DNA from: a virus
Lineage: Duplodnaviria > Caudoviricetes
IMG/VR virus record: IMGVR_UViG_3300020177_000966
Length of the DNA stretch: 64,000 bases
Reading direction: 5' to 3' (one strand)
In this document: positions 4,442 through 36,218 of the stretch, piece after piece
Position numbering within the stretch: position 1 is the first letter of the stretch
Layout of the letters: each line of letters starts with the position of its first letter
Program-made: the position numbers and the translations under genes
Notes under the pieces: generated by a model
The model's input: only the letters and a program-made list of their open reading frames with translations
Told to the model about the DNA's origin: nothing
Databases searched by the model: none

Positions 4442-5219
4442 GTCGAGTTTGAATCTCCATACTTACTGTGTCCATGCCTGTGTCATTGCACTTGGCAATC
4501 CATTCACCATTAGGATCAATAATGCCGCTTGGTGCTTGCACACGATGTTCTATTACTCCGCCCACCATGTCTGTACTAGCATTAGCAACAAATACAATTT
4601 GTGAATTGAGTTTTGCAAACATCTGTAAATGACTTTCATGATAGTTGTATATAACAGGATCAAATTCTTCTGTGTTGCAGTTTGCACTTACAAATACAAA
4701 GTCAGCATCTCTATAATCATTCCATAGATACGGATTGCCTTTTGGACTTGCGCTAGGAAATGCCCAAGCATCATTGCAGATCAAACTGCCTACTGTAGGG
4801 CCAGTTTCTGATAACTGTGTAATCATACCGTGTAGTCCAGGTAGGTAATAATAATTTTCACCTAATCCTGTGTGTGTTCTTGTTAGCAATTGTTTGTTGT
4901 ATGCACTTACAAGTTGTCCTTGATAGTAGTAACGGATCTGATTATAAGGAAAGCCATCTTGCTCATAGTGCCCTGTACCCAGTGCAATACTACGCTTGTT
5001 CTCATGCAAATACTTTTCTAACACTGTTAGTGCTTCAAAGTATTCGCCTTTTTGTTCTTCTGTTCCTTCGTGACACACGTTAGCACAATAACCACTAAGA
5101 CTGCCTTCTGGTGTTAAGATCCAATCTGAATCTTTGTTTGTATCTAGTACGTCTAGTATACACTCTAAATTTTCTTTAATGCTCGCAAATACTGGTTGCT
5201 GGCTAACTGTAATTTTCAT
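4428..5219 (-). CDS. carbon-nitrogen hydrolase (nitrilase superfamily)
   Basis: Catalytic triad motifs LTPEGSLSGY (E), YNKQLL (K), ICNDAW (C). Confidence 0.85.
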   Translation of the reverse strand: MKITVSQQPVFASIKENLECILDVLDTNKDSDWILTPEGSLSGYCANVCHEGTEEQKGEYFEALTVLEKYLHENKRSIALGTGHYEQDGFPYNQIRYYYQGQLVSAYNKQLLTRTHTGLGENYYYLPGLHGMITQLSETGPTVGSLICNDAWAFPSASPKGNPYLWNDYRDADFVFVSANCNTEEFDPVIYNYHESHLQMFAKLNSQIVFVANASTDMVGGVIEHRVQAPSGIIDPNGEWIAKCNDTGMDTVSMEIQTRHDDN

Positions 5220-8073: not shown

Positions 8074-8103
8074 ATTATACTTTCTTATACCACCGATTGT
8101 CAA
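8074..8103 (-). promoter_or_regulatory. sigma70-type promoter of the helicase gene
   Basis: TTGACA (8103-8098), 18 nt, TATAAT (8079-8074), 6 nt, ATG. Confidence 0.8.
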
Positions 8104-9046
8104 GTATTATTTTGGTCTTAGATTTTGCTAGTACTGCTCCTACACAACTGCCAGGGTCTCCTGGGTTAGGTGGAACCCAAACATTATCCCAATGACTGCG
8201 AATCTTATCTACAGCATCTCTGTTAAGGGCACCGCCGCCAGCTAGTGCTAAACTATTAGATCCTGTTTGTACCTTGGCCCATATGCTCAAACAACTTACT
8301 GCATATTCAAATATAGTCTGTGTAGCGGCCGCAATATCGTACATGTCTTGCTTTGAATTTAATTCGGGTCTCCACCACTGACAACCTCTGTGTAGATTTT
8401 CTCTCATCATAATCTTTTGAGGGTTGCGACTTTCATGATCTAAATTGATAAGCTCTTTACGCATCGCATGTACTAGTCGTTTCGAATTACCTTTCTTTGC
8501 CCATTGGGCTACTAGGTATTCGTCACGTTGTGGTACTAGTCCCATACGTTGTGTCATAGCACTGTAGAAAAGTCCAAGGCTATGCGGGTACCCTTGGTTA
8601 TAAATCTTTTTAAGTTTGTTGTTCTTTCCATGCCATATAGTTAGGGTCTCAAATTCTCCAATTGAATCTAAACAAATTACAGCACAGTTATCATAGGGTT
8701 GTGTGTAATAAGCATAAGCCGCATGTGATAAATGATGTTGGGTATACTCTATCTTACATGTAATGTCCCAACGTTTAAGATAGGCTCTGATATCATTCTC
8801 TTTGCGTAGCCAACCCTGCCCAGCTTTAAGCTGACGTAGTGTTTTTAAGAACGGACGTTCGTACCAAATTACTTTAGAGGGCGGACCAAAACTTTGTCGG
8901 GCTACTTCTAACTGAGTCCAATTAAAGTCTGGGTCGTTAGGAACTCCTGAAAAATCTTTTGCTAGGCTTGCCCATAACAATTGATTGTTATCAAATACTG
9001 CTAAACTTGCATCGTGGCTGTTACCAACCATACCCCATGTAATCAT
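8075..9046 (-). CDS. carbamoyltransferase (NodU/CmcH family), N-terminal Kae1-like domain only
   Basis: HDASLA, HHLSHAAYAYY, LDSIGE, SLGLFYS, ALAGGGALN, PGDPGSCVGA; ends at 323 aa with no YrdC-like C-domain. Confidence 0.85.
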   Translation of the reverse strand: MITWGMVGNSHDASLAVFDNNQLLWASLAKDFSGVPNDPDFNWTQLEVARQSFGPPSKVIWYERPFLKTLRQLKAGQGWLRKENDIRAYLKRWDITCKIEYTQHHLSHAAYAYYTQPYDNCAVICLDSIGEFETLTIWHGKNNKLKKIYNQGYPHSLGLFYSAMTQRMGLVPQRDEYLVAQWAKKGNSKRLVHAMRKELINLDHESRNPQKIMMRENLHRGCQWWRPELNSKQDMYDIAAATQTIFEYAVSCLSIWAKVQTGSNSLALAGGGALNRDAVDKIRSHWDNVWVPPNPGDPGSCVGAVLAKSKTKIILDNRWYKKV

Positions 9047-11359: not shown

Positions 11360-11909
11360 GAGTTTCACAAATTAAATTCATGTGTACTACACATGCCATT
11401 GCATAGGAAACGGCATGTGCTTTCTTAAAGTAATATGAACCGTCAGTTGGCTTTGTCCATACTTCCTGAAAAATCGAATTCCAACTGCTCCCAGCTAGAT
11501 GTCTCTTTCCCGGTCGAATTATCGCTAGTGTCGCCGCTAATTCTAATACCGAGTTGGGCTTCAAGACTTTTAATAGACTGCTGTGTCCGTTTAGATGAAA
11601 GACCTTTTCGCTGAAGTCCTCGTGCTCCAATAGTTCCCATAGTGGTTCCCTTTCCATTAGTTCTGTTAAATGTGCTTCATCCCTAACGCCTTTGTATATG
11701 CTCACGTTAAGGAAGTCTAGTTTAAAGTAGCCACGTTCTTCTGCGGTCTTGTAGTCAACTGTGGCCAAGTTGTCTACAGGGTTGTGTGGAATCTCAGTTG
11801 CATAGACTCCGGTGTTATGCTTCTTGTCTGTATCAAGTTTAGCAACACGATGCTTGAGATTATCAAGCACAATGGTTCTATCAGCGAAGTCTATATCAAT
11901 ATCAGGCAT
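11349..11909 (-). CDS. miniature DNA polymerase III alpha (DnaE/C-family) catalytic-core protein
   Basis: PDIDIDF, KHNTGV, GYFKLDFL, VFHL, LAIIRPG and YYFKKAHAVSYA occur in DnaE order within 186 aa. Confidence 0.85.
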   Translation of the reverse strand: MPDIDIDFADRTIVLDNLKHRVAKLDTDKKHNTGVYATEIPHNPVDNLATVDYKTAEERGYFKLDFLNVSIYKGVRDEAHLTELMEREPLWELLEHEDFSEKVFHLNGHSSLLKVLKPNSVLELAATLAIIRPGKRHLAGSSWNSIFQEVWTKPTDGSYYFKKAHAVSYAMACVVHMNLICETLTL

Positions 11910-12417
11910 TTTGTTTTTGTTCTATTGCTTCAGCTTTTGCTTGAGCTTCTTTCCATTTAATTGGTGGTACATGATCAATATACATGATGCCGTTTAGATG
12001 ATCTAATTCGTGCAGGAAACATCTTGCAGTATATCCTGTAAGTGTTTCTTCTCGCACTTTACCAAATTCATTAATCCACTTTGCTTTAATTTTATGCGGA
12101 CGGTTAACTGATAACGTAATGTTAGGAGTACTCAAACATGACTCCCACATATCAACACTAGGTTCAATATATTCAACTACTTCTGGATTGATACATAGTG
12201 CATCTCTTTCTTGAATATTATTAGTACTAGTATTAAGTAATGCAAATACTCTAAAGTCATAACCCATCTGGTTAGCAGAAAGACCTATGCCGCCGTGCTC
12301 TTTCATTAATGCAAACATTTCTTTTTTAAGATTGACTGGATCCATAGGAGGGTTTTCAAAATCCCAGGGTTTACATTTAGATGTCAATCTTTCATCTGGA
12401 TAATATACTAAACTCAT
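11902..12417 (-). CDS. def: peptide deformylase
   Basis: GIGLSANQ, ESCLS and HELDH motifs. Confidence 0.95.
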   Translation of the reverse strand: MSLVYYPDERLTSKCKPWDFENPPMDPVNLKKEMFALMKEHGGIGLSANQMGYDFRVFALLNTSTNNIQERDALCINPEVVEYIEPSVDMWESCLSTPNITLSVNRPHKIKAKWINEFGKVREETLTGYTARCFLHELDHLNGIMYIDHVPPIKWKEAQAKAEAIEQKQNA

Positions 12418-12995
12418 TTTTTCTCCTTATAAAAGTAATCAACTACAAATATCCTTTTGTCAGTTCTTGTAGGATATGCTCCGTGCAAGACTGTGCTTTT
12501 AAAAATTAATACATCACCTCTGCTAGGCTTATAGCAAAGATCGTGTGTATTTCCTTGACCATCATAAAGGAATGCAAATGTTCCTCCGTGCCACGCTGTA
12601 GGATCATCGTCACCATCTGTTAGATAGCAAACTGCACTAATCTTTTTAATAGTCTGGTCACTGTGTCTATGTGCTTTTTGCCAGCCGCCTTTTTTGTAAT
12701 CAACGATCCACAATGCACATAAATCAGTTAGCTCTATATTTAATCCAACTTGGTCAATCTTTTCTTGTAAAAATGGTTTGTATTTCCATTCATTTAGATA
12801 GGCTTGTGGATGTACGTTAAATTGCTTTCCTCTGTAAGTAGTAGTTTGGTCACTTACATCTTCTCTAGTATCGCTAGGAAAAACTTTCTTATCCCAATGA
12901 AAGTCAAACTCTTCAGGATCAGGATAGTTTGTTTCAATTATCCATTGATGTTCGTTACCTAGTAAGTGAGTTTTCAAATTATATTCTCCTGCCAT
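12414..12995 (-). CDS. 2OG-Fe(II) oxygenase superfamily protein
   Basis: GGWQKAHRHSD (HxH/HxD facial motif), GDVLIFKSTVLHG and distal R in a DSBH pattern. Confidence 0.75.
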   Translation of the reverse strand: MAGEYNLKTHLLGNEHQWIIETNYPDPEEFDFHWDKKVFPSDTREDVSDQTTTYRGKQFNVHPQAYLNEWKYKPFLQEKIDQVGLNIELTDLCALWIVDYKKGGWQKAHRHSDQTIKKISAVCYLTDGDDDPTAWHGGTFAFLYDGQGNTHDLCYKPSRGDVLIFKSTVLHGAYPTRTDKRIFVVDYFYKEKK

Positions 12996-15403: not shown

Positions 15404-15855
15404 AGTTTAACCTCGTCTATTCCCATATCTTTTGCCAGCTGAATAATTTCTTTTTTAGTAGATAGCTTTGCAATCATTTTAATTTCGTCAAGTTTTTTAT
15501 TTGGGTATAATGTAATTAGAAACTTAACTGTTTTGTTGTTATCAGCATCTTTTTTCTTGTTTCCAATCCATTCATGATACTGAATAGATTTTGTATTTCC
15601 TGATAGGCATAAAAGTTGCCATAAAAGTTTTTTATGTTTTTGTAGTGTAAAGAAATGTTTATTGTAATATTCATTTGTTTTAAACACAGCAAGTTCTTGT
15701 GCTTCTCTATTACCTTTAACTGCACTTACATATCTGTTAAGCAGATAAAAACTTACTTGTTTACGTTCTTCTTCCGACAGTTCATCCCAAACAGATATGG
15801 CCCCCATATCTATTGCGGCAAGTATATCTTTTAGTGGTAATTTTTTATCTGCCAT
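15400..15855 (-). CDS. clamp-loader small subunit (T4 gp62-like)
   Basis: FYLLNRYVS...NEYYN...LLWQLL...YHEWI pattern, size and replication-gene context. Confidence 0.65.
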   Translation of the reverse strand: MADKKLPLKDILAAIDMGAISVWDELSEEERKQVSFYLLNRYVSAVKGNREAQELAVFKTNEYYNKHFFTLQKHKKLLWQLLCLSGNTKSIQYHEWIGNKKKDADNNKTVKFLITLYPNKKLDEIKMIAKLSTKKEIIQLAKDMGIDEVKL

Positions 15856-16514
15856 GTTTCAACATCCTCCGGGGTATTAATCTCTACTCCATTAAAGTAT
15901 ACACTATTACAGCCGATTTGCCAACCGTTTTTTAGCCATCTCAACTGTTCTAGTTGCTCAATTCTTTCTTCTGCTTCTATAAGCAGGTGTGGATATGCTT
16001 GCAATGCTTGTTTGCGATAACCATAAACACCCAAGTGCCAGTCGCCATATCCTGTCATGCCTCTGCCAAACCATAATGCTTGATCACCTGCACGTACCAT
16101 CTTAACACTGTTAGGATCGTTTTGCATTTCAGCTGGCATTGTTGTGTACACTGTGCTTACTTCATATTGAGATAAACTAGCAATACAATTTTCAATTAGT
16201 TCTACAGTAACATCAGGCATGTCGCCTTGTACATTAATGAACTGATCAAAGTCGTCAAACACTCTACTGTTTACTGCTCCGGCACATCTTTCTGTGCCGT
16301 TTTGGTAATCTGTTGTGTCCATAATACACTTACCGCCGCCCATATAGTTGTATATGTCTTGGTGGTCAGTAAGCACAAATGTTGGTAGGTTAGACGCTGT
16401 ACAAGCGTCATACACACGTCTTATCATAGGAACGCCATCTAACATACACATAGGCTTTCCTTTGAAGCGTGTGCTGTTATATCTAGCCGGTATAAGAATA
16501 GCGGTGGATGTCAT
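15831..16514 (-). CDS. kdsB: 3-deoxy-manno-octulosonate cytidylyltransferase (CMP-Kdo synthetase)
   Basis: IPARYNSTRFKGKP, NVQGD, HLGVYGY, EQLEQLRWL. Confidence 0.92.
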   Translation of the reverse strand: MTSTAILIPARYNSTRFKGKPMCMLDGVPMIRRVYDACTASNLPTFVLTDHQDIYNYMGGGKCIMDTTDYQNGTERCAGAVNSRVFDDFDQFINVQGDMPDVTVELIENCIASLSQYEVSTVYTTMPAEMQNDPNSVKMVRAGDQALWFGRGMTGYGDWHLGVYGYRKQALQAYPHLLIEAEERIEQLEQLRWLKNGWQIGCNSVYFNGVEINTPEDVETWQIKNYH

Positions 16515-17259
16515 CTACAACCCTTTCAAAGTCTTCTAGTTTTAACATGTTAGGACCGTCGCTAGGTGCTAGATCAGGGTTAGCATGGACTTCCATAAAA
16601 AAGGATGTGATCCCAAGAGCAGACCCAGCCCTAGTGATCCCAGGGACATAATCACGGTTCCCACCACTACTATCACCCTGGCCTCCAGGTTTCTGTACTG
16701 CGTGAGTAGCATCAAGCACAATAGGAACATCATAGTTATCAAGCATATACTGTAGACCAGTAAAGTCCACGACCAAAGTATTGTATCCAAAACTTGTACC
16801 TCTTTCAGTAATCCAAACTTCTTTTGCGTCTGTACACTTACTTAGTATTCCTTTAACATCCCAGGGTGCTAAGAACTGTCCTTTTTTAATATTCACAATC
16901 ATTCCTGTGTCGCAGGCTGACGTAATCAAATCTGTTTGTCTACACAAGAACGCAGGAATCTGTAGAACATCTACAGCATCTCTAAACTGATTGCGTATAG
17001 TAGAAACTTGTTCAGAAGTATGTACATCAGTTAATGTTTTTAACCCTGGTATTTCTTTTTTCATAGTTTGAAAATCGTATAACGTAGTAAATAAACCTTG
17101 GCCTCTTTCTCCGTTTACACTAGTACGATTTGCTTTGTCGTAACTGGCTTTGAAGTAATATTCAATGCCATACTTGGCGCAAACTCTTGCACACTTTTCT
17201 GCAATCTCAATACTTTGTTCTAGTGTTTCGTGTTGGCAGGGTCCTGCAATAATTCTCAT
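16483..17259 (-). CDS. kdsA: Kdo-8-phosphate synthase
   Basis: IAGPC, KASYDKANRTS, QIPAFLCRQTDL, NIKKGQFLAPW, TERG, DATHAVQKPG, SDGPN. Confidence 0.95.
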   Translation of the reverse strand: MRIIAGPCQHETLEQSIEIAEKCARVCAKYGIEYYFKASYDKANRTSVNGERGQGLFTTLYDFQTMKKEIPGLKTLTDVHTSEQVSTIRNQFRDAVDVLQIPAFLCRQTDLITSACDTGMIVNIKKGQFLAPWDVKGILSKCTDAKEVWITERGTSFGYNTLVVDFTGLQYMLDNYDVPIVLDATHAVQKPGGQGDSSGGNRDYVPGITRAGSALGITSFFMEVHANPDLAPSDGPNMLKLEDFERVVDDIHRYSYTG

Positions 17260-21292: not shown

Positions 21293-21321
21293 ATTATAAT
21301 GTATTACAACTTAGATGTCAA
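21293..21321 (-). promoter_or_regulatory. sigma70-type promoter
   Basis: TTGACA (21321-21316), 17 nt, TATAAT (21298-21293), 6 nt, ATG. Confidence 0.85.
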
Positions 21322-22146
21322 GTGTTTTATAGGTATTCCTTTAGAAATTTCTTCAATAGTCCATTCGGTGTGTGCGTAGTCATTAAGCCATTGTATTCTA
21401 TCACCGTACAGTGGATTTTCAATATTGCGTAAGTTTTGTTCTGCAACGTCTACTGCTAAACTGCTAGGGCCTGTAAATGCAGGTACTCCGTTAATAATAC
21501 TATGTATGCCAGGGTTACTTGACCAACTTACAGTAGCCCATATGTTATTGAAGCCCATATCAAAATCGTCATAGCTACCAGTAATATGCTTAGGGTTTTC
21601 TCGTTTAACATTCTTAAATTCGTGTTCAATATGCGGTAATGGACATCTTGGATGTGGTCGAAATATTATAGGACGTTTTGTTTGTGCTTGTATAAAAGTT
21701 ATGGTATCTATTATCCATTGACTCATACTTGGCATACCTTGCCATTGTAAACTCTTATCGTGTTGGCCACAAATTAATATGTATTCACCGTCGTAGGTCC
21801 AAGGTTTTAATGTAAGTCCGAGAAGAGAAGCACGACTACTATCATTCCCCATAGGCCCAAAATAAGCATCTCTATTAATACCATTGAGTCCTACTTTCCA
21901 GGTTGTTCCTCGTTTGATCCCGCCGACTTCAAGTACGATGGTCGGTTTGGATTGTAAAACGTTCCTTTCCCAAATAGCACGGTTTCCAACCATACGACCG
22001 TTCCAAAGTACGCTCCAAATAACATCAATCCCATCATCACTGTTATCGACACAAGTATGCCCAAGAGCATTAGCGCCAGCGTGAAAGGCGTCAAAAACAG
22101 GGCCAGAATTAAGTGCGCCATATTGCCTCCAAAGATTAAATTTCAT
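21304..22146 (-). CDS. capsule-biosynthesis (KpsC/KpsS-like) putative beta-Kdo/ulosonate transferase
   Basis: ILICGQ...D, FRPHPR, SSNPGIHSIINGVPAF motifs. Confidence 0.55.
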   Translation of the reverse strand: MKFNLWRQYGALNSGPVFDAFHAGANALGHTCVDNSDDGIDVIWSVLWNGRMVGNRAIWERNVLQSKPTIVLEVGGIKRGTTWKVGLNGINRDAYFGPMGNDSSRASLLGLTLKPWTYDGEYILICGQHDKSLQWQGMPSMSQWIIDTITFIQAQTKRPIIFRPHPRCPLPHIEHEFKNVKRENPKHITGSYDDFDMGFNNIWATVSWSSNPGIHSIINGVPAFTGPSSLAVDVAEQNLRNIENPLYGDRIQWLNDYAHTEWTIEEISKGIPIKHLTSKL

Positions 22147-22978
22147 TCCAATACGCTTCAGTTCTATTTACCATAATGTCTTTAGCATCAGACTTGCCTT
22201 TGTCTTTGCGGCCGCCTTTCATATGATCAATCCATTTGCCTAACGGACCATTAATCAACGGATGGCCGCCTCCGCCTGACTTTGCTTCACGTAGATACAT
22301 TTCTGCTGAGTAGTCGTGTGACGGAAATTCGCTATACTTCTTTAGCAGTTCGCCAAACACATAACTGTCGTGCCATTCTTCTAATGTGAAGATACCGTTC
22401 TCAGCATCCTCGTACATACGCTCAAAGTCTTCTAAGAAACTGTGACACACAGGATGATTTAGATTCATACCGTAGAACCCGCACTCTGGCCAAGTCTGCG
22501 ATCCTTTACCTCTACCAACATATGTAATGTAAGCATTGTCTGGTAGTAGTTGTGCAAAGTCTTCATATTCCCAAGGGCTGTGAATAAAACTATCTGCATC
22601 CATCCACACACACCACCCCTTAGACCGCGCACAAGCGTCATACACAGCATATGTTTTATTAGCGAACCTAACTGCATCCCACTTGAATTCTTTGTTCCAA
22701 TCCTTGCGTGTGTGACGCTGTGGCTCATTGCTAACGTCTCCGTTAGCTTTGGGAACATTACGCCATTTGTCTTTAAACGCATTTAATTTAGGTAATACTG
22801 CTTTTGCATCTAATATTTCAATACGACTTGGATCGGGATTGTCGGGCACTACATCTTCTGCATACACAAGTAGTTTGATACGTTTATCAACCTTTGATGC
22901 AAAACTTTCTAAAAAACGTTTTCCGTATTTTACATATCCTGCCGGATGAAAAGTTGTTACTACTGTTATTTGTTTCAT
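22136..22978 (-). CDS. GT-A fold glycosyltransferase
   Basis: VVTTF N-terminus, WMDADS DxD motif; start at MKQIT (ATGA overlap). Confidence 0.7.
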   Translation of the reverse strand: MKQITVVTTFHPAGYVKYGKRFLESFASKVDKRIKLLVYAEDVVPDNPDPSRIEILDAKAVLPKLNAFKDKWRNVPKANGDVSNEPQRHTRKDWNKEFKWDAVRFANKTYAVYDACARSKGWCVWMDADSFIHSPWEYEDFAQLLPDNAYITYVGRGKGSQTWPECGFYGMNLNHPVCHSFLEDFERMYEDAENGIFTLEEWHDSYVFGELLKKYSEFPSHDYSAEMYLREAKSGGGGHPLINGPLGKWIDHMKGGRKDKGKSDAKDIMVNRTEAYWNEI

Positions 22979-23916
22979 TTTTTTGCCCATTCTCTCATAT
23001 GTTTCCAACACTCGCCGGATTTTAATTCATTTAACGTCCAATGACTCATTGCAACTCTTCGAAGCCAAGATTCTCTATCAAAGTCGTAATTAGGTGTATC
23101 TATTTTAGTTAAATCTGTATTTGCAACTTCTGCGGCTTGACTTCTTTGAGGATCAATAACAAATACAGGAACTCCTTCAATTGCAGATATTACACCAGGA
23201 CTACTGTTGTAACTAACTACAGCATATGCATCATGGAGGTCTTTTAATAAAGAACTAGTCGGTGACGATATCTTAACTTTGTGTCCAATTGCTCTTAGTT
23301 GCTGAATATGTTTTTCAATTTTCTTATCGCCAGGATGAAACCTAACCATTATTTCTCTGTCAGTATATCTTCTAAGATTTTGTAATAAAGGATGCAACCA
23401 ATTCATAATTTTAAGACCGTCCATACTCCATCCACCATCTCGTTGACATGTAATTAATATATAATCACCGTGTTTTTTCCATGGCTTTAAATTTATACCT
23501 AACGAATCTCGTAGTATTGCCCAGCGTTGCGCAAGTATTTTACTATCACAATATTCTCCAGTGTTTGGAAAAATTCCGTCGAAGCTATATCTTAAAAATG
23601 TATTTGAATTTTTTGGATCGTATGCTAGGAATAAATTTGCATCAGCAATAACAGTTCTTCCATTTATCTCGGACTGTCCTGCAAGAACCCTACGTCTTAA
23701 ATCTAAATGAGGAACGTGTTTACTTTCAGGATGTACAAATCCTTGTAGTACACCAATGTCAGCAGGTTCAAATTGAAATGTATTAATAATCTGTCCTTTA
23801 TCTCCAACAGCGTTTACTCCTTGAATAAAATACTCTATTAACTTTGGTTTTTCTAAATTTTTATTTCCGGGAGGTATAGCCTTCATATAGGCATTTACTC
23901 TTAAATTATTAGTCAT
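22975..23916 (-). CDS. KpsC/KpsS-like putative transferase
   Basis: ILITCQ, VRFHPGD, YNSSPGVISAIEGVPVF. Confidence 0.55.
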   Translation of the reverse strand: MTNNLRVNAYMKAIPPGNKNLEKPKLIEYFIQGVNAVGDKGQIINTFQFEPADIGVLQGFVHPESKHVPHLDLRRRVLAGQSEINGRTVIADANLFLAYDPKNSNTFLRYSFDGIFPNTGEYCDSKILAQRWAILRDSLGINLKPWKKHGDYILITCQRDGGWSMDGLKIMNWLHPLLQNLRRYTDREIMVRFHPGDKKIEKHIQQLRAIGHKVKISSPTSSLLKDLHDAYAVVSYNSSPGVISAIEGVPVFVIDPQRSQAAEVANTDLTKIDTPNYDFDRESWLRRVAMSHWTLNELKSGECWKHMREWAKK

Positions 23917-24775
23917 ATAACTTCATCCTCTCGATCATACCTAATGCAACTCCGCTACTCATTTCTTCTAATGAATATTGGCAGTATGCAAGATAATGTA
24001 AGACCCTTAAAAATTCACTTGCTTTAGGATAGTATGGATTTTCAATATTAGATAAATCTTTATTTGCTACCTCGTCAATACAGGACGGTGCCATAGTAAA
24101 TGCAGGAATACCATAATGCATTGCTTCAAGTCCGGCCATACTTTGGTATGTAACTACAGCATGCACGTTATCTCTTTTACATTGATGTGCTACGCTGTTT
24201 TCTTTAATTCTTTCAAACCGTAACCCTTTGTCACGTATAACAATAGGCCTATCTGTATATTGTTTAAGTTTGGATATAGTTTCTTCTACCCAGCTGTCTT
24301 TATCAATATTATAAAACTTACACGGTTTTTCTGATGGTGTTACAAGTAATATAGGACCGTTGTGGTCCTTTGGATCTTTCCTACCATTATATTTCATATA
24401 TGGTGCAAAGGATACCAATCTGTTAAATCTATCTCCAGGCACATCTTTAATTTTAGTATGTTGTACGTTGTTCTTTACAATTCTATAAAAGTATTTTTTC
24501 TTTTCTAAATTGCCCATATAACCATTATCGATATAATAAAAGTCTCTTCTAGTTTCCCAACAACGCCAAATTTCTTTACGTTTAGTCATGCTACGGAATG
24601 ATACTGGAATACTAATATCCCAGGGCGACTTGTCTATTTTACTACAAATTTCTTTTCGATCAACAGTTAATGCTTTCGTGCCTTTCTGCCAATGTTTCAT
24701 AATTTCGTCTTCGTCATTAAGCATTAGCATCCTAGGTGGTATTGGAGAATTTCCCTCCATATCAAAAGTTCCCAT
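23909..24775 (-). CDS. KpsC/KpsS-like putative transferase
   Basis: IDNGY, ILLVTPS, IRDK, TYQSMAGLEAMHYGIPAF. Confidence 0.5.
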   Translation of the reverse strand: MGTFDMEGNSPIPPRMLMLNDEDEIMKHWQKGTKALTVDRKEICSKIDKSPWDISIPVSFRSMTKRKEIWRCWETRRDFYYIDNGYMGNLEKKKYFYRIVKNNVQHTKIKDVPGDRFNRLVSFAPYMKYNGRKDPKDHNGPILLVTPSEKPCKFYNIDKDSWVEETISKLKQYTDRPIVIRDKGLRFERIKENSVAHQCKRDNVHAVVTYQSMAGLEAMHYGIPAFTMAPSCIDEVANKDLSNIENPYYPKASEFLRVLHYLAYCQYSLEEMSSGVALGMIERMKLYD

Positions 24776-24777
24776 AT

Positions 24778-25455
24778 CTATTCCTTATTCATCATTTCCT
24801 GTAGTTCTTTTTTCCACAGTTCGTGGAATTCACAATTGCGGTAGTTTTCAAACCATGGTCCGCCTTCAGTGTAGTGTATTAGTTTTGGTGTTTCAATATC
24901 ATCATACACTCCTACTAAGTAGTTCCATGTATGATCTAGTTCTCCAATTTCTTCATCTTTAAGCCAGCTAAATCTGTGTAGGTATGCTCCATTGATTTCT
25001 AAACTGTTTACTAAATCTTGATCAAGTACCTTATTACTAGGATGCCCACAGTTAAACAACACAACACTTGACCAGTTCTTACGTGGATAAATTGTTTGTT
25101 TCTGACCATCCATTTTAGTAGTCTCAGTTACTTTGTAATCATGTTTAACACACATAACTGCATACTTGTCATCTGCTTGATCAAACAGTTCTTTAATGTC
25201 TGTAGTAAGGATCATGTCACAATCCATAAACACTGCCCAGCCTTCGAAGTTAGTAAGTTCTGGTATAAGGAATCGTGTAAATGTAAATTCTGTTGATGCG
25301 AGTTTATCTACAGGACGAGTATACCATCCTGCATCTCTTAGCTCTTTTTGTTTTAATGGACGCACATCTGCGTCAGGTTGTCTACTTAGTATGCTGTGTT
25401 TACATACTTGATAAGCAATATCTTCTCTTGGGTCGTAACCTACAAATACCTTCAT
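24778..25455 (-). CDS. glycosyltransferase (GT8-like)
   Basis: VFVGYD, STEFTFTRF, FMDCDM, RKNWSS, IHYTEGGPW; start MKVFV at a TAATG overlap. Confidence 0.85.
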   Translation of the reverse strand: MKVFVGYDPREDIAYQVCKHSILSRQPDADVRPLKQKELRDAGWYTRPVDKLASTEFTFTRFLIPELTNFEGWAVFMDCDMILTTDIKELFDQADDKYAVMCVKHDYKVTETTKMDGQKQTIYPRKNWSSVVLFNCGHPSNKVLDQDLVNSLEINGAYLHRFSWLKDEEIGELDHTWNYLVGVYDDIETPKLIHYTEGGPWFENYRNCEFHELWKKELQEMMNKE

Positions 25456-26216
25456 TAATCCCTTCTTTCTATATCTTCTTCGTAACACACTCCGCGTTGT
25501 ATTTCGAGTATGTGTGCATTTTCTGTTCCTGGATTACTTGCTTTGTGCCAGACTTCTTTATTAATTTCGTACGGTCTACTCAATGGAGTTAGGTAAGTAA
25601 TCTCTTGGCGTTTGTTCCATTCAGTTACCATTTTAACTTCGCCTTCAAGTATTGTCCATTGTTCGCTACGTTTGAAATGTTTTTGGTCACTGAGTGCTTT
25701 GCCTGGATAGATTACAAGTTCTTTTACTTTATAACCTTTCTCTGGTTTGTTGTCTAGCACCCGCCAGTATCCCCAATCACGTTCTGTCTTTTGTGTTTTC
25801 CATTCGTCAAGTATCCAACTGCTACTATTAGCTTTGTTGTTCCCACCTACGCCAAACTCAAAAGAAATATTTTCTACTTCAGTATCCATTTCTGGAATAT
25901 TGTTTGATGTTCGATCGCCGCCGTTTGCAAATATAATATGAGCATCCGGATACATCATTCTTACATTTTTAATTGCTTCCTTAGACGAATTATCATCATC
26001 GTCAAATAGTAAACAATGGTCAACCATAGATAAGTGTTGTATGATTGTCGTGCGTTCGGCGCCCGGCATAAACGGACGACCTTTCTTGCGTGTAAGCCAA
26101 GCATCGGTGTTAATACCTACAACTAATTTATCGCCTAGTTGTTTTGCTGACTTAAAGTATTCAATATGTCCTGAGTGGAGTGGATCAAATCCTCCGGTAA
26201 CTAATACTACTTTCAT
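25455..26216 (-). CDS. cytidylyltransferase-like (HxGH) domain fused to C-terminal cupin
   Basis: TGGFDPLHSGH, FANGGDR, then ERDWGYW...SDQKHFKRSEQW...WHK cupin. Confidence 0.85.
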   Translation of the reverse strand: MKVVLVTGGFDPLHSGHIEYFKSAKQLGDKLVVGINTDAWLTRKKGRPFMPGAERTTIIQHLSMVDHCLLFDDDDNSSKEAIKNVRMMYPDAHIIFANGGDRTSNNIPEMDTEVENISFEFGVGGNNKANSSSWILDEWKTQKTERDWGYWRVLDNKPEKGYKVKELVIYPGKALSDQKHFKRSEQWTILEGEVKMVTEWNKRQEITYLTPLSRPYEINKEVWHKASNPGTENAHILEIQRGVCYEEDIERRD

Positions 26217-27483: not shown

Positions 27484-28173
27484 TTATTTAATTCTCTGAA
27501 CAAAGCCGTGCATACTAGTGTGAATGTCATTAGTCCATTCACTCATAACTTGATACCATCCAAACTCTGCTGGATAAAGTTTATGTTGATCTACTAACTC
27601 TGTTACTAATTTTGTATTAAAGTGGTCTCTTCTATGTATAATAAAATCACAAGGCAAAAATCCATTCCAGTCATCTTCTAAATTTAATTTGTCTGCTTCT
27701 TCAACTCGACCTGAGCCAAATTTTGGACCTCGATTAGGTCTTGTCATAAATCCAACTGGTCCGTGTTCGTATGCTTTGCGCATCCAATTTTCAATAGGTA
27801 CCTGTCTATCTATTTCAGTATTCCAATCAACCCTAATAATTAAATCGTGATGCTTTGGTATTTTTTTACATATATCTGCATGGGCAATAATTGGTGCAAC
27901 ACCAAAATACATTTCGCCAATTTCTAATCCTTCGCCGCCTTTATGTTTTAAATATTTTGGGTGCTTTGAAGGCGGGTCTACTTGAAGTGGGTGATAATGC
28001 CACTTAGGATAGTGCATTGTAAATAATCTTTCATGCAACTCTCTAGGTACAAGATGTGTTTTATTAGTCCAGGTATGAAAATAAAAGTTGACACCGGGTA
28101 TACGTTGTCTTAGCATTGGCAATATATTTGATTGCTTATCATTAACTCCACTAATACAAATTGCTATATTCAT
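27484..28173 (-). CDS. hypothetical protein in glycan locus (possible transferase)
   Basis: MNIAICISG, FHTW, IIRVD; context. Confidence 0.5.
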   Translation of the reverse strand: MNIAICISGVNDKQSNILPMLRQRIPGVNFYFHTWTNKTHLVPRELHERLFTMHYPKWHYHPLQVDPPSKHPKYLKHKGGEGLEIGEMYFGVAPIIAHADICKKIPKHHDLIIRVDWNTEIDRQVPIENWMRKAYEHGPVGFMTRPNRGPKFGSGRVEEADKLNLEDDWNGFLPCDFIIHRRDHFNTKLVTELVDQHKLYPAEFGWYQVMSEWTNDIHTSMHGFVQRIK

Positions 28174-28868
28174 TTAAAAAACCAATTCCTTATGTTTACT
28201 GCAAACTGTTTGTGACTTACTACACCCGGGTGAACGTTATCTAACGCATTATCAATTTTAAACCCTGGATGCCAGCTAAATTCTTTATAATTTAAATTAG
28301 GTAATAGCATGTGTTTAAATTGATTAATGTGCATTTCTGTATCTATAAGCAAATGATAACTTTTTACCTTTTTAGATTCTAGTAATGCATGTACATGATT
28401 TATTCTATTAATTTGGTCAAACTGTGCATCATATTCTTCAAAAAATTCAGAAAAATACGTGCTTATATTTTGTTTGTATTGATCTACTTCACTTCCGTAC
28501 TTGTCGTTAATAGTTTTCCAAAATCCTTTTGACATTTTCTTTTCGACAAATGCTGGCATCATATGTAGATATTTGTCTTTGGATTTATAAATGGTTTGTC
28601 TTGCTAAACGAGTCCATAGCACTACTACAACATCGCCTTCATTAAATGTTGAATTAAAAATTCTATGAGCAATCATTTTATTTGATGCACCGGGTATTGA
28701 TCTATTATCTAAATGTTTTATTTGTAATAATTGCCGTAAAATTGAAGGCCATGCTAAAGCACTAGGATCTGGGCCTGCTTGAAGAACATCAGACTCGTTT
28801 ACACAGTCGGGTAACCCTTGTCCGTAAGTATGAGAACAACCGTAGGTTATTAACTGCGATGGTTTCAT
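28170..28868 (-). CDS. hypothetical protein, SGNH-like
   Basis: TYGCSHTYG, PGASN, DNVHPG. Confidence 0.6.
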   Translation of the reverse strand: MKPSQLITYGCSHTYGQGLPDCVNESDVLQAGPDPSALAWPSILRQLLQIKHLDNRSIPGASNKMIAHRIFNSTFNEGDVVVVLWTRLARQTIYKSKDKYLHMMPAFVEKKMSKGFWKTINDKYGSEVDQYKQNISTYFSEFFEEYDAQFDQINRINHVHALLESKKVKSYHLLIDTEMHINQFKHMLLPNLNYKEFSWHPGFKIDNALDNVHPGVVSHKQFAVNIRNWFFK

Positions 28869-30173
28869 TTAAAACAATCCTACATTGTTTAATACATCAA
28901 ATGGATCGCTACCAAATGTTGCTTCAAATTTTACAAGCATTTCTTTCTTCAATGCTGACTTTACTTCTTCAAATACAAACGCCCATTTTTCTTCTGGTAT
29001 GCATACTACTCCGTCAGGATCTCCAAAGACAATATCATTATTACGTACCGTAATACCATTAATAATTACAGGCATATTCATTTCTTCTAATGTGCCTTCG
29101 TATCTAATATCGTCTGGCATGCGCCCATGGGCAAACAACGGCAATCCCATTTGTGTTACACGATCTACATCTCTAGTTTGTCCATCTACAACTACACCTA
29201 CTGCACCACTACGGTATGCAAAGTGCGCATTAAGATCACCAAAGTATGCTTTATCTTTTACGTCAGTGCTTACAATAATAACATCACCTGGGGCTACAAA
29301 TTGATAACTGCCAAGAGCATCAAATATACCTTCCCAATGTTTTTGTTTAGGATCTTTCTCATCTTCTGGTAATGCTTTTAGTTTTAATGTTTTTGCATAT
29401 CCTAAAAATGTTCCGTTGTTCATTGATTTAATTTCACTACTTAAAAAATGATCAATACCGTGTTCTTTACAAATATCACTTAGTAAACAACTTGAAATTG
29501 ATTTACTTAACATCTTAAGTTGTTGAACTTTCTTTGCACGTTGTCCTGCACAAATATCTTTTGCAAAATCCAAATCTTCTTGATTATTAATATCAACTAA
29601 CTGCAACGGAGTTACAGACCATAGTAATGCATCAGAAGTATATCTTTTTTGTACAGGTTTACCATTTGTTTTAACAGCATAGAAACTCATTGCTTCTATT
29701 GTATGAATAGGTAAATCAACACTGTTAGGAATAGTTTGACCATATGTAGGTTTGCCATTTTCCCATAGATATAATTTTTGTTCTGAAACTGCAACTAAAC
29801 TTGTTTTATTACTTTTCTTTAATTCAGCTAACGCAGGATCAATAACAGTTTTATCAATAAAAGGTGCTGTACATAAAACTTGTACAATTATGTCTGCCTC
29901 AGCAACCTTAGATTCATTAGCAAACATAGCATGTCCATCAGTAGTATTATTTGCTAAACTAGAATCTCTATAATGATGCTTAATTGGCAAGTCGCTTGCT
30001 AACTCATGTATTTCTTTACTTTCGCTATCTAACCAAACTTCGTCAATTTCATCACACTTTAGTAATTGCTTTAATTTTCTTTTGAAGAGGTATTCACCAT
30101 CTAAAATTTGTAAATTTTTATTTTTAATTCTCTCGCTGGTTCCTTTTGCAGGTACAAATGCTATAGTTTTCAT
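28869..30173 (-). CDS. acylneuraminate/ulosonate cytidylyltransferase fused to RraA/HMG-aldolase-like domain
   Basis: FVPAKGTSERIKNKN, CTAPF, VDINNQED; C-terminal GDVIIVS...AYFGDL...GVVVDGQTRD...DIVFGDPDGVVCIP. Confidence 0.85.
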   Translation of the reverse strand: MKTIAFVPAKGTSERIKNKNLQILDGEYLFKRKLKQLLKCDEIDEVWLDSESKEIHELASDLPIKHHYRDSSLANNTTDGHAMFANESKVAEADIIVQVLCTAPFIDKTVIDPALAELKKSNKTSLVAVSEQKLYLWENGKPTYGQTIPNSVDLPIHTIEAMSFYAVKTNGKPVQKRYTSDALLWSVTPLQLVDINNQEDLDFAKDICAGQRAKKVQQLKMLSKSISSCLLSDICKEHGIDHFLSSEIKSMNNGTFLGYAKTLKLKALPEDEKDPKQKHWEGIFDALGSYQFVAPGDVIIVSTDVKDKAYFGDLNAHFAYRSGAVGVVVDGQTRDVDRVTQMGLPLFAHGRMPDDIRYEGTLEEMNMPVIINGITVRNNDIVFGDPDGVVCIPEEKWAFVFEEVKSALKKEMLVKFEATFGSDPFDVLNNVGLF

Positions 30174-30174
30174 T

Positions 30175-30894
30175 CTATTTCTTTCTAATAATATTTTCTA
30201 ATCTATCAACGTGCATAACATCTTTATGCTTAAAACCTTTGCTTAGATTTTTAAAAACAACGTCATGTATACCAAAGTGTTTTGTTAAATGTTTTATTGT
30301 AGCTACAGTACGTCTAAATGTGATTTGCTTCTTATCTTCTAATCGTTCAAGAACTAACAGTTGTTCTCTTGGCCCAGTTCCGTAGAAATGTGTACGCTCT
30401 AAATTACTATAATCATAATCAACACCGAGCCAATAAATTTCTTTAAATCCCATATAAAATGCTATAATAGAGGCATCAATAACTGTTGCCCTAGTAGTGC
30501 CCCATCCTTTTTCAATATTACTAGGAAATCCTTTTATTTCTACTGATTGTTTATCAGCGTATGTTTTAGGTATATTGACATAGTCTTCTCTTATGTTTAA
30601 TGTTGGATTAATTTCTGCTACTTTACTAGAATAAAATCTTGTAGCTTTCATATTAGCTAGTGCATCATATCTATGATTATATAATTCTTTATATACAATT
30701 GCGTCGCCAACAAAATAATAATCAAACTTTTTTAACTTAAGAGTATCCTTAGCATAAAAGGCCTTATTACATGCAAATACTATTTCATCATCTAATAACT
30801 CTAATCGTTCGTCAGATAAACTTGGTGCGCATCCTAAAATAAAACAGCGTTTACCTTTATGAATATTTTTAAAATCTTTTATTTCTTTCTTCAT
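30175..30894 (-). CDS. DUF115/Maf-like (motility-associated factor) transferase domain protein
   Basis: FKNIHKGKRCFILGCAPSL, FACNK, MGFKEIYWLGVD. Confidence 0.75.
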   Translation of the reverse strand: MKKEIKDFKNIHKGKRCFILGCAPSLSDERLELLDDEIVFACNKAFYAKDTLKLKKFDYYFVGDAIVYKELYNHRYDALANMKATRFYSSKVAEINPTLNIREDYVNIPKTYADKQSVEIKGFPSNIEKGWGTTRATVIDASIIAFYMGFKEIYWLGVDYDYSNLERTHFYGTGPREQLLVLERLEDKKQITFRRTVATIKHLTKHFGIHDVVFKNLSKGFKHKDVMHVDRLENIIRKK

Positions 30895-33487: not shown

Positions 33488-34337
33488 AATTTAACTCTCG
33501 TAATTCTTGTTCAATTTTAACTTTCCAATGATTTGGTAACCAACGTAGTTGAGCCGCTTTATAACGTTTGTCATTTTTCTTGCCGCCTTTACCTGTTGAA
33601 AAGATATCATCTTTTTTTAGACCCCAAGCATTCCACTTATATGGAATACTATGATAAGGTTTGTTTAATTCGTTATTCCATTGCGAGATAGTCTGCCTGA
33701 GAATATCTTGATCAATAAACCAATAACATCCGTCATCAAACCCTTGTTTCATGTTATCGCTAAACAATTTTCTAAAAAGTTGTCCGTCGTCATTGATTCC
33801 TAATGTTAACGCACTTGCAATAAACACATTTGTATCTTTTGGTTTAGGCATAATGCCAACGTGACAAGCAAGATTCATAAATGCTGATTGATGAAATCCG
33901 TTTCTTAAAATACTATCGCAGTCAATTTGAAAAACGTGTTGAGTTTTATTAGGAAATAATTCATCTAATCTCATAAATCTAACACTTGCAAGATAAGTTC
34001 TTCTTGCAATATAATCTAAATCAGAAGTCTTAAAAATATCAATGCCGTCTTTCATGCGCTTATGATTCTTTTTTAGATTAGTGTAAAATTTATTATCGAC
34101 ATCTTCCCATGTATACGTAAACTTATATTTGGATTGTAAATCATCTAACACAAGTTTATTCATGTTTCCTTCATTTATAATATGACAGTGTACGTGCATC
34201 CAACCTAGTGTTCTATTAATACTTTGTTGTAATGCAAATCCGTGTCGATCAAAATAATCGTAATCACAACTAAAGAATACAACACAGCTTTCACTTGCTG
34301 GCGTTAAACTTCCATATAATCTCGGTAACTCAAACAT
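33474..34337 (-). CDS. putative GT-A glycosyltransferase
   Basis: RFMRL, QIDCDS, WFIDQDIL. Confidence 0.55.
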   Translation of the reverse strand: MFELPRLYGSLTPASESCVVFFSCDYDYFDRHGFALQQSINRTLGWMHVHCHIINEGNMNKLVLDDLQSKYKFTYTWEDVDNKFYTNLKKNHKRMKDGIDIFKTSDLDYIARRTYLASVRFMRLDELFPNKTQHVFQIDCDSILRNGFHQSAFMNLACHVGIMPKPKDTNVFIASALTLGINDDGQLFRKLFSDNMKQGFDDGCYWFIDQDILRQTISQWNNELNKPYHSIPYKWNAWGLKKDDIFSTGKGGKKNDKRYKAAQLRWLPNHWKVKIEQELRELNYGSK

Positions 34338-35004
34338 CTGGTGCCATTCCGGGTCGATAACCTATTACTGCATTTTTTTCGCCGCGGCCTATTTTTCTAA
34401 TCATTCTATATCCTAATGGACTTAAAATTTCTCTAATACTATTAGCATGATACCCATAACGTGTTGGGTGGTCTTTACATTCATATAAGATTATAGGCCT
34501 ACAACGTTCAATGGTTTTTATTCCGCCCATTGCTACAAACGGTTCATATCCCTCAGCATCAATTTTAATAAAATCTACATCTCGCAGATTAAAAAAATCT
34601 AAAGGTTTTACAGGAATTGAACCTGTACTGTTTGGACGAACGTGTGTACTGAAACTTTTATTTGTCGTGTTAATTTCAACAGTTTCTTCTATTGCTCCTA
34701 AACCAACAGGATATGTTGTAACATTATCAACTTTTCTAACAGCAAGATTATGTTTCATACAGTTGTAAATCTGAGGATTAATTTCAAATGCATGAACGTG
34801 TTCAAAACTTTTTGCCATTTGATATGCTGTAATACCTACATGAGCTCCTACATCAACGGCAACTCGCCATTTTGCACACGAGCTCATTGCTGTTGCAAGT
34901 TCTAAGTTTTGATAGTTATTAATGTTACCTGCGCCTTGCTTTTTAGCAGACTTTAAACAAATGTCACCTTCAATACTTCTCCATCCATCAATTTCTACAT
35001 ACAT
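34330..35004 (-). CDS. FkbM-family methyltransferase
   Basis: VDVGAHVG, AFEIN, DFIKIDAEGYE. Confidence 0.9.
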   Translation of the reverse strand: MYVEIDGWRSIEGDICLKSAKKQGAGNINNYQNLELATAMSSCAKWRVAVDVGAHVGITAYQMAKSFEHVHAFEINPQIYNCMKHNLAVRKVDNVTTYPVGLGAIEETVEINTTNKSFSTHVRPNSTGSIPVKPLDFFNLRDVDFIKIDAEGYEPFVAMGGIKTIERCRPIILYECKDHPTRYGYHANSIREILSPLGYRMIRKIGRGEKNAVIGYRPGMAPDV

Positions 35005-35005
35005 A

Positions 35006-35776
35006 TTATTTTACCTGATATTTAAATGTGCATTTCCATGCAGTTCCGCTTGCAAATTCATTTCTTGAAAATTGACTCCATGCAATATGTTCAAGCATTT
35101 CTGAACGATCAAAATTAGTTTGTCCTTGCCAGTGTTCTACAGCACTTTGACCTAGTATTTTTATTGGCTTTCCTAAACATAGTGCTTCAACTGCCGCCAT
35201 ACTATGGTATGTGATTACTTGTTTTGCATTAGACATCAACGGCAAAACTTCTTTAAATCTTTGTCTACGCTTACCTTCTTTTTCTCTAATAACTAATTTA
35301 GTTGGTTGACTCTCATAATACTGTATAGTATCTCGTCTCCAGGTATCATAATCCTGTCCCAAGTATTTAAAAATATTACTATTGTTGGGCATTACTAAAA
35401 GATTATATTCTCCAATTGGATTCCAGTCTTGCCATAAGTTATCGTCAAATTCTAAAAATTCGCGCCGACTATGCGGTACAGGACAAGGCTTTGTATTTTG
35501 TAATGAGTTGTAACTGATTCGATAATAGAACGGAGTCTTGTGTCTATGATTGCCAATATAACCATTATCAATATGAAAGAAATTTAATTTAGGATTAGCT
35601 CGAATAGCATCAAATACCCAATCATCAAAAGGATGACTAAATGCAAGAAATCGATCTTCTTGTATTTCTTGAGGAGATTCTATTGTTATTGTATCGCACA
35701 TTCTGTACAAATACGTAAAAAGTTGTCCTCTTACTTCTTTTGAATTTTTAGGTACCTGAAACTTATATTGATGCAT
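35006..35776 (-). CDS. KpsC/KpsS-like putative transferase
   Basis: IDNGYIG, LLVMP, IREK, TYHSMAAVEALCLGKP; paralog of 23909-24775. Confidence 0.5.
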   Translation of the reverse strand: MHQYKFQVPKNSKEVRGQLFTYLYRMCDTITIESPQEIQEDRFLAFSHPFDDWVFDAIRANPKLNFFHIDNGYIGNHRHKTPFYYRISYNSLQNTKPCPVPHSRREFLEFDDNLWQDWNPIGEYNLLVMPNNSNIFKYLGQDYDTWRRDTIQYYESQPTKLVIREKEGKRRQRFKEVLPLMSNAKQVITYHSMAAVEALCLGKPIKILGQSAVEHWQGQTNFDRSEMLEHIAWSQFSRNEFASGTAWKCTFKYQVK

Positions 35777-36218
35777 CTTCCATGCCCGCAACTCTTAGTT
35801 TAACGACATTGGTAATTTGCCATTGTTTTTGATCAAGTGCTTTTAACACACCTAACCATTTGTTCCGCATAAGTGCAAACTCGTTAATAATCTTTTCATA
35901 GTCAACTACGTCTGTTTCACCGTCAACGTATTTTTCAACGTCACGACTAGATAGAGCTCGCTGATAATTTTCAAGATATTTTTTAAAATATGAGCTACGC
36001 AATCTGCGTAGCTCAATATTTAGGTAATTAAGGATTGCTTCAATTTCTTGAAGTTGATTAAACCGATGCTCAACAATGCCAGGCATTTCCGCCGCGGCTC
36101 GTTCTACATTGCCTGATAACTTACACTCATGCCTAGCTTTCACTAATTCAGTTTCAAAGTATGCAATCGCATCTGGAATCTTATTAATGTTACGGCTAAC
36201 TTCGCTGTACCATCCCAT
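35763..36218 (-). CDS. uvsY: recombination mediator UvsY-like
   Basis: LSSRDVEKYVDGE...KALDQKQWQITNVVKLRVAG; follows uvsX. Confidence 0.8.
   Translation of the reverse strand: MGWYSEVSRNINKIPDAIAYFETELVKARHECKLSGNVERAAAEMPGIVEHRFNQLQEIEAILNYLNIELRRLRSSYFKKYLENYQRALSSRDVEKYVDGETDVVDYEKIINEFALMRNKWLGVLKALDQKQWQITNVVKLRVAGMEDASI

Follow-up and report, generated by a model that had tools for sequence, protein, structure and literature searches.

The DNA analysed here (the window) is a stretch of 64,000 nucleotides from the IMG/VR virus record IMGVR_UViG_3300020177_000966 (Duplodnaviria; Caudoviricetes), and forms the terminal part of a 167.5-kb contig with a CheckV completeness of 46%. The contig is that of a T4-like jumbo myovirus: it encodes a tail sheath, a tail tube, TerL, UvsX and a gp32-like protein, and its TerL shows 54% identity to that of PA5oct-type phages. 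Set between replication genes are runs of minus-strand open reading frames (ORFs), at approximately 21.3-36.2 kb and 12.4-17.3 kb of the window, which encode GT25 and GT8 proteins, FkbM and other methyltransferases, a nucleotidyltransferase-cupin fusion, KdsA and KdsB, together with many ORFs that have no family match in Pfam. The subject of this study is one gene of this glycan island, P0001, in which a cytidylyltransferase (CT) domain is joined to an RraA-like domain, and which lies beside a gene for a glycosyltransferase, P0002 (Table 1). The data suggest that P0001 is probably an enzyme of a pathway for a Kdo-type (3-deoxy-2-ulosonic) acid that is fed by KdsA.

Table 1. Features of the fusion gene and of the surrounding glycan island (positions in the window).
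Feature	Position	Strand	Basis or remark
CT-RraA-like fusion, P0001, 434 aa	28869..30173	-	Open ORF; Pfam; AF2 pLDDT 95; 864 homologues
Predicted CMP-ulosonate synthetase domain, residues ~1-210	29544..30173	-	P-loop, Foldseek, NCBIfam
RraA/HMG-CHA-aldolase-fold domain, residues ~225-434	28872..29501	-	PF03737 95.6 bits; Foldseek; conserved residues
WaaZ-like MptE/DUF115-superfamily glycosyltransferase, P0002, 239 aa, single domain	30175..30894	-	PF01973, AF2, adjacency
S-adenosylmethionine (SAM) methyltransferase, 163 aa, overlapping the start of P0002	30891..31382	-	Methyltransf_23, E 9e-10
Methyltransferase	34330-35004		Pfam
ORF without assigned function, 232 aa, directly 3' of the fusion stop	28170..28868	-	Non-significant GT99 N-terminal hint, E 0.03
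Phage KdsA (Kdo-8-phosphate synthase)	16483..17259	-	PF00793, E 1.7e-49; NF003543 equivalog, 325 bits (cut-off 242)
Phage stand-alone KdsB-type CMP-Kdo synthetase	15831..16514	-	Full-length CTP_transf_3; KdsB subfamily models 140-168 bits, slightly below cut-offs
Cluster 12 paralogues, three of four (~280-313 aa), candidate beta-Kdo transferases	21304..24775	-	WbbB-like profile match, weak
Cluster 15 ORF, 291 aa, unrelated to cluster 12	22136-23011		Within the 21304..24775 span

An earlier note, made from the sequence of this DNA alone, had described P0001 as a single ORF joining a CT to a complete RraA-like domain, and this description is confirmed by the intact reading frame, by Pfam and by AlphaFold 2 (AF2) modelling. 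Residues 4-126 match CTP_transf_3 (PF02348; E 5e-19, 69.4 bits, gathering cut-off 22.6) and residues 229-390 match RraA-like (PF03737; E 4.5e-27, 95.6 bits, cut-off 24.5), and the four motifs quoted in the note (GDVII, FGDL, VVDGQTRD and DPDGVV) are all present in the translation. In the AF2 model, which was built on an alignment of 68 sequences, both domains are complete (pLDDT 95, pTM 0.90). Homologues of the protein are numerous (864 found, including proteins of approximately 50% identity in Alphaproteobacteria), both domains are conserved among the 68 aligned homologues, at a mean column identity of 59%, and the fusion is thus not a chance event. These homologues are named ‘RraA family protein’ or ‘NTP transferase domain-containing protein’ in their source databases. 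Searches of the INPHARED phage database by tblastn gave zero matches to the fusion, PHROGs contained zero matches for P0001 or P0002, and nothing relevant was found in the literature that links RraA with a cytidylyltransferase, or RraA-like proteins with Kdo.

The N-terminal domain carries the P-loop VPAKGTSERIKNKN, in which P8, K10, S13, R15, K19 and N20 are invariant in the 68 sequences; P-A-R/K-x-x-S-x-R-x-x-x-K is what we take to be the N-terminal CTP-binding P-loop pattern of CMP-ulosonate cytidylyltransferases. Foldseek comparisons matched the domain with the CMP-Kdn synthetase of Prymnesium (9t4z; TMt 0.84, rmsd 2.2), with mouse CMAS (1qwj; 0.80) and also with NeuA of Neisseria and Vibrio, whereas KdsB reached approximately 0.64. 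Compared with 9t4z and 1qwj, the catalytic fold of approximately 210-230 residues is complete in the AF2 model. PseF (TIGR03584) was the sole full-length match among the NCBIfam models, at 52.7 bits and far below its cut-off of 205.7; the KdsB equivalog TIGR00466 scored 19.5 bits against a required 155.2, and the KdsB models covered the N-terminal half alone. The fusion has in common with KdsB/KpsU CMP-Kdo synthetases (EC 2.7.7.38) the PF02348 superfamily, the P-loop and the pathway neighbours kpsF and kdsA, but differs from them in failing the KdsB equivalogs, in its nearer fold (approximately 0.64 for KdsB and 0.84 for the NeuA type) and in its additional RraA domain. Judged from the models, the CT domain appears to be of the NeuA/PseF/Kdn type rather than of the KdsB type.

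The C-terminal domain has the fold of RraA and of the HMG/CHA aldolases. Foldseek aligned it with 3k4i (TMt 0.83-0.86) and with the HMG/CHA aldolase 3noj (0.68), as well as with RraAS2 and yeast YER010c. In HMG/CHA aldolase, residue Arg-123 is essential and stabilises the enolate, Asp-124 and Glu-199 are metal ligands, and Asn-71 as well as Lys-147 is required for activity and for binding of the CHA carboxylate/phosphate (PMC5065237). Residues R334, D335 and E411 of P0001 align with Arg-123, Asp-124 and Glu-199 and do not vary in any of the fusion types, the E411 assignment coming from sequence alignment alone; by alignment, therefore, the aldolase-type catalytic core that the note had supposed is intact, with neither the Arg/Asp pair nor the Glu lost. 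Asn-71, His-75 and Lys-147 of the aldolase are replaced in the fusion family. In addition, a clade-specific motif, D355-I-(K/R), is kept across fusion partners and stand-alone genes, and the LigK/GalC equivalog TIGR02798 is not reached by the fusion (62.7 bits as compared with 304.5). The metal-2-oxoacid core (Arg/Asp/Glu) is thus retained, whereas the substrate-distal part differs from that of the aldolase. The known proteins, HMG/CHA aldolase (LigK/GalC, 3NOJ) and RraA, have in common with the fusion clade the fold and the Arg-123/Asp-124/Glu-199 metal-enolate core; they are only 20-24% identical to it, do not have the D-I-(K/R) motif that the clade adds, and are associated with aromatic catabolism or RNase E, whereas the fusion clade is always tied to genes of ulosonate pathways.

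The gene upstream of the fusion, P0002, ends 1 nt before the fusion ATG, an arrangement that points to translational coupling of the two genes. Its match to the MptE-like family PF01973 (E 1e-7, 32.2 bits) falls slightly below the gathering score of 34.6. Homologues of P0002 carry PF01973 and many of them carry PF27901 (WaaZ_KDO_III) as well, several of the PF27901 carriers being 40-43% identical to P0002; the PF27901 link runs through these homologues, as the family is not among the local Pfam scan hits. The top match of the AF2 model (pLDDT 92) in the AlphaFold database was WaaZ of E. coli/Salmonella (TM 0.70-0.73 over residues 5-238), with which P0002 has 16% sequence identity, as compared with approximately 0.5 for the Cst-I/II sialyltransferases and for the Maf structure 5mu5 (TMq 0.55). 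P0002 therefore resembles the Kdo III transferase WaaZ in its single-domain fold and in the PF01973 and PF27901 domains of its relatives, and shares with Maf flagellin glycosyltransferases (MptE/DUF115, GT42-like fold) the superfamily but not their size. The hallmarks of Maf proteins (approximately 600 aa, three domains with Maf_flag10_N and an MptE-like core, a flagellar locus) were not found in P0002, which is compact and lies in a phage island without flagellar genes. The description of the neighbour as Maf-like thus holds at the level of the superfamily, and the closest form, as far as the model indicates, is a compact WaaZ-type Kdo transferase; P0002 is a probable user of the CMP-sugar.

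Neighbourhoods of the fusion were surveyed at 80 bacterial and 34 viral loci, with ORFs clustered and partner genes located by tblastn. Of 35 viral places (the 34 IMG/VR loci and the window), 22 have a P0002 homologue next to the fusion, and a P0002-type gene also adjoins it in one locus of Planctomycetota. As this gene stands upstream of the fusion in some loci and downstream in others, functional coupling is suggested rather than frozen synteny. Methyltransferases had also been reported near the fusion, and two are present (Table 1); the one that overlaps P0002 is syntenic in related phage loci (cluster 49), and O-methyltransferases accompany the fusion in bacteria and in Cafeteria roenbergensis virus (CroV) too.

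The phage also encodes a KdsA, 12.6 kb downstream of the fusion in the same-strand island, and a KdsB of its own, with which the fusion CT has only the P-loop in common. The pairing of kdsA with kdsB, beside a fusion CT so different from KdsB, fits the production of two different CMP-sugars. The canonical KdsD-KdsA-KdsC-KdsB set is incomplete in that SIS/KpsF and KdsC gave no match on the 167-kb contig, which is 46% complete.

It has to be considered whether the phage copy instead activates a Pse-, Leg- or Kdn-type nonulosonic acid, to be attached to protein by Maf-like glycosylation, in a process unrelated to the Kdo genes of the island. The nearest structures of the CT domain are indeed CMP-Kdn, Neu5Ac and Pse synthetases, the neighbouring gene belongs to the Maf/sialyltransferase superfamily, and a split homologue of the fusion occurs near a true Maf in a flagellin island (L124:4167-9491), where the genes for Maf (627 aa), DUF4915, a CT (220 aa), an RraA-like protein (214 aa, with an overlapping start) and KdsA follow in this order, downstream of flagellin, FliW and CsrA genes. 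Nevertheless, even in that island KdsA comes straight after the RraA gene; it is 52% identical to sphingomonad KdsA, and the arrangement implies that flagellin may be modified there with a KdsA-derived sugar. Moreover, no genes for a NeuB-type synthase, aminotransferase or dehydratase were present among the phage island ORFs scanned with Pfam, and P0002 fits WaaZ much better than Maf. A nonulosonate role for the phage copy is accordingly considered improbable.

Data from bacteria bear on the source of the sugar acid. In at least 23 of the 80 bacterial loci kpsF, the fusion and kdsA are contiguous on one strand, with KpsF (TIGR00393, 232 bits) directly upstream and KdsA (NF003543, 427 bits) directly downstream of the fusion; overall, KdsA lies within 3 kb of the fusion in 25 loci and KpsF in 26. 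The order in these loci (at least 23), which is of a Sphingomonadales type, is that of a 393-aa gene followed by KpsF, the fusion and KdsA, and a TylF-type O-methyltransferase is found near the fusion in 10 Sphingomonadales-type loci. The 393-aa gene has a likeness to Capsule_synth/GT99 beta-Kdo transferases in protein-language-model features, which serves as a lead only, and its profile gave zero sequence matches in the PDB. In Parvularcula, the fusion stands beside KdsA within an ABC-transporter capsule cluster. LpxC was not found in any of five sphingomonad genomes that have the operon, which points to genomes without lipopolysaccharide (LPS). Each of the five contains exactly one KdsA, the fusion-adjacent gene in four of them, and in three the fusion is the sole convincing CTP_transf_3 protein. 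With a single, fusion-adjacent KdsA in four LPS-less genomes, the product of KdsA must flow through the fusion.

These observations are at odds with the proposal of the earlier note, in which the RraA half is a pyruvate-dependent aldolase that builds a 2-keto-3-deoxy acid without phosphoenolpyruvate (PEP), the CT activates the acid and the Maf-like enzyme transfers it. Such a route would be in keeping with the aldolase fold and its conserved Arg/Asp/Glu core, since class II pyruvate aldolases are common among RraA homologues (PMC5065237), and with the loci that have no adjacent synthase, including 22 of Rhodospirillaceae. It is contradicted by the kpsF and kdsA genes that flank the fusion in bacteria and by the LPS-less genomes, in which the product of the sole KdsA must feed the pathway; in addition, the phage has kdsA (and kdsB) itself, and the same RraA clade is fused to KdsA, to KdsC and to DAHP-synthase-II proteins, as described below. 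A PEP-independent aldolase route is therefore regarded as quite unlikely. The survey upheld the link between fusion and transferase, but revealed a kpsF/kdsA context in at least 23 of the bacterial loci.

The distribution of the RraA domain outside the fusion was assessed by an exhaustive hidden Markov model (HMM) search with the RraA half alone, an earlier word-index search having given only fusion fragments, and this recovered stand-alone and alternatively fused forms of the clade. P0366 is a KdsA-RraA fusion (NF003543, 317 bits) and P0350 (L121:3985-5100) is a KdsC-RraA fusion, which scores 123 bits with TIGR01670 (cut-off 107) and is named a YrbI-family Kdo8P phosphatase by JGI. P0350 is convergent with a gene for an 852-aa Rpe-DAHP_synth_2-CT protein (L121:5087-7645), and the same pair is found in L122. 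Both contigs have 22% GC, are densely packed with genes for GT10, GT11, GT25, GT92, methyltransferases and DUF1796 proteins, and have the appearance of glycan islands of giant viruses; a sister contig carries ribonucleotide reductase. Three proteins of 1023-1149 aa (P0305, P0299 and P0311) combine ribulose-phosphate 3-epimerase (Rpe), class II DAHP synthase, CT and RraA, in that order, and may be a one-protein route to a CMP-activated 7- or 8-carbon ulosonate. The gene for P0305 (L123:10001-13450) lies on a contig of 65% GC, beside Nuc_sug_transp and sulfotransferase-like genes, that looks algal and prasinophyte-like. Since each of the canonical enzymes is found either together with the RraA clade or fused to it, the clade replaces none of them and would supply an additional step.

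The same forms bear on whether the RraA half is catalytic at all. It could be a trimerisation, scaffold or regulatory domain attached to a CMP-Kdo synthetase of the capsule type, similar to KpsU: the RraA of E. coli acts as a regulator and not as an enzyme, an acidic residue is not strictly kept at position 313, and long CMP-sialate synthetases with accessory C-terminal domains, from animals and streptococci, were aligned by Foldseek. A purely structural role is nevertheless unlikely, in that R334, D335, E411 and the D355-I-(K/R) motif are strictly kept whether the domain is encoded alone or joined to partners that differ widely, the domain moves among KdsA, KdsC and CT partners in the manner of a pathway enzyme, and the phage already has a KdsB.

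A further suggestion, that the RraA half takes the place of a missing Kdo-8-phosphate phosphatase (KdsC), arises from the sphingomonad operon, which with its transferase-like gene, kpsF, the fusion and kdsA is short of a phosphatase only, and from the lack of any match to TIGR01670 (KdsC) in the five operon-bearing sphingomonad genomes or on the phage contig. We know of no phosphatase with the RraA fold, and P0350 joins the same clade to a genuine KdsC. Moreover, the LPS-producing control Caulobacter vibrioides gave no TIGR01670 match either, so that absence of KdsC is weak evidence in Alphaproteobacteria, and KdsC is a dispensable enzyme that is often absent (PMC5615194). In CroV, too, a KdsC domain exists alongside the fusion (PMC9614988). 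In view of the KdsC-RraA fusions, the KdsC domain of CroV and the Caulobacter control, substitution for KdsC is extremely improbable and the idea was dropped.

The fusion architecture itself was already published with the genome of CroV. In CroV, crov265 combines KdsC with arabinose-5-phosphate (A5P) isomerase and crov267 combines KdsA with an O-methyltransferase, while crov266 consists of a CT that groups with CMP-Neu5Ac synthetases, and not with KdsB, together with a ‘demethylmenaquinone methyltransferase’ domain (PMC9614988); a Kdo pathway was predicted in silico for crov265-267 (Fischer et al. 2010, reviewed in PMC9614988). ‘Demethylmenaquinone methyltransferase’ is a legacy name for the RraA fold that is used in the PDB titles of RraA-fold structures. 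By its published domain description, crov266 has the same two-domain design as P0001, and it sits with KdsA, A5P isomerase and O-methyltransferase. The settings differ: the CroV genes are those of a giant virus that infects a protist, whereas the window belongs to a T4-like jumbo phage in which the fusion has a WaaZ-like neighbour and is accompanied by a separate KdsB.

Taken together, the kpsF and kdsA flanks in bacteria, the kdsA and kdsB of the phage, and the fusions with KdsA and KdsC indicate that the domain accompanies a PEP-dependent synthase, and we consider it probable that P0001 is a bifunctional enzyme of a KdsA-fed pathway for a Kdo-type acid, with the RraA half as a fifth function. 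In this pathway KdsA would make the Kdo-type sugar acid by the ordinary PEP-dependent route, the NeuA/PseF-like domain of P0001 would use CTP to give the CMP-activated acid, and the WaaZ-like P0002 would transfer the activated sugar to an acceptor, within an island of glycosyl- and methyltransferases. The RraA half would be neither synthase, phosphatase, isomerase nor activating enzyme, but a fifth catalytic function; it may use a divalent metal to bind the open-chain 2-oxo-4-hydroxy-acid end of the sugar (the free sugar or its 8-phosphate), and act at C3/C4 before CMP activation. A tentative suggestion for this step is a retro-aldol/aldol epimerisation at C4, or a related isomerisation, to yield an ulosonate other than Kdo, which would explain the need for a dedicated CT that is not KdsB.

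Several observations weigh against this interpretation. The phage kdsA does not adjoin the fusion, and neither kpsF nor kdsC was found on the 167-kb contig, at its completeness of 46%. The 22 Rhodospirillaceae loci, from metagenome-assembled genomes (including L020, L021, L028, L037, L044 and L045), have no adjacent kdsA; in these, a gene for an IspD/MobA-like nucleotidyltransferase of 275 aa comes after the fusion, and 21 of the 22 have a gene for a 405-aa TagF-like protein after it as well. Residue 313, which corresponds to Asp-102 of the aldolase, varies between D, E, N and Q, and the greater proximity of the CT to NeuA, PseF and Kdn enzymes than to KdsB would allow a nonulosonate substrate for the phage copy. 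Furthermore, to our knowledge, C4 epimerisation by an RraA fold is without precedent.

Other genes of the island may have parts in glycan assembly. Cluster 12 is represented in the window by four ORFs (21304-22146, 22975-23916, 23909-24775 and 35006-35791) and in related phages by 56 members at 20 viral loci. The top PDB match of its profile was the GT99 beta-Kdo transferase WbbB (5fa0), at a weak E of 0.035, and the ORF at 35006-35791 gave a Capsule_synth hint (E 0.069). A homologue of the ORF that follows the fusion stop is kept downstream of the fusion in L097-L099 and L114. At 25455-26216, a 253-aa ORF joins a cytidylyl/adenylyltransferase-like domain (RfaE domain II-like, E 8e-22) to a cupin of the mannose-6-phosphate-isomerase type; it stands beside GT8 in 16 related phage loci and may be a third sugar-activation module. 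Among the replication genes, ORFs at 4428-5219, 8075-9046, 11902-12417 and 12414-12995 encode a CN-hydrolase, a protein with a carbamoyltransferase N-terminal domain, a peptide deformylase and a 2OG-Fe(II) oxygenase. Comparison of shallow neighbour-cluster alignments by hhalign (the 393-aa gene, the phage MptE-like gene, cluster 12 and clusters 15, 34 and 61) gave no links, and nor did blastp between unknown neighbours from the different contexts. A gene of the IMPase family that is convergent with kdsA in 12 loci was considered as a pathway member and rejected; its top score is as a HisN-like protein, far below cut-off, and its position is attributed to synteny.

New here are a family member from a jumbo phage, together with its conserved WaaZ-like partner, the argument from LPS-less sphingomonads, and the KdsC-RraA, KdsA-RraA and Rpe-DAHPS2-CT-RraA forms, which exclude models in which the domain substitutes for a synthase or a phosphatase. 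Sugar acids of the Kdo type play a central part in bacterial envelopes and capsules, algal scales and plant pectin, and their four-enzyme pathway is deemed complete; a conserved and apparently catalytic fifth domain that travels with this pathway in very different organisms and viruses is therefore of interest, and knowing what it catalyses could bring to light an ulosonic acid or a control step that is new. It is conceivable, if still speculative, that the RraA clade represents a fifth enzyme, hitherto overlooked, in a ‘second’ Kdo-type pathway of wide occurrence, and that it remodels the product of KdsA or of DAHP synthase II at C3/C4 by metal-enolate chemistry. If so, the ‘second’ pathway would span bacteria, prasinophyte-like algae, giant viruses and jumbo phages, and an undescribed ulosonic acid would need its own NeuA-like CT and be installed by WaaZ-, Maf- or KpsS-like transferases; widespread annotations as ‘RraA’ or ‘demethylmenaquinone methyltransferase’ would be corrected. 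For the phage, the fusion would supply a second CMP-sugar besides CMP-Kdo, so that a jumbo phage would carry two separate CMP-sugar-acid modules in a large glycan-building island.

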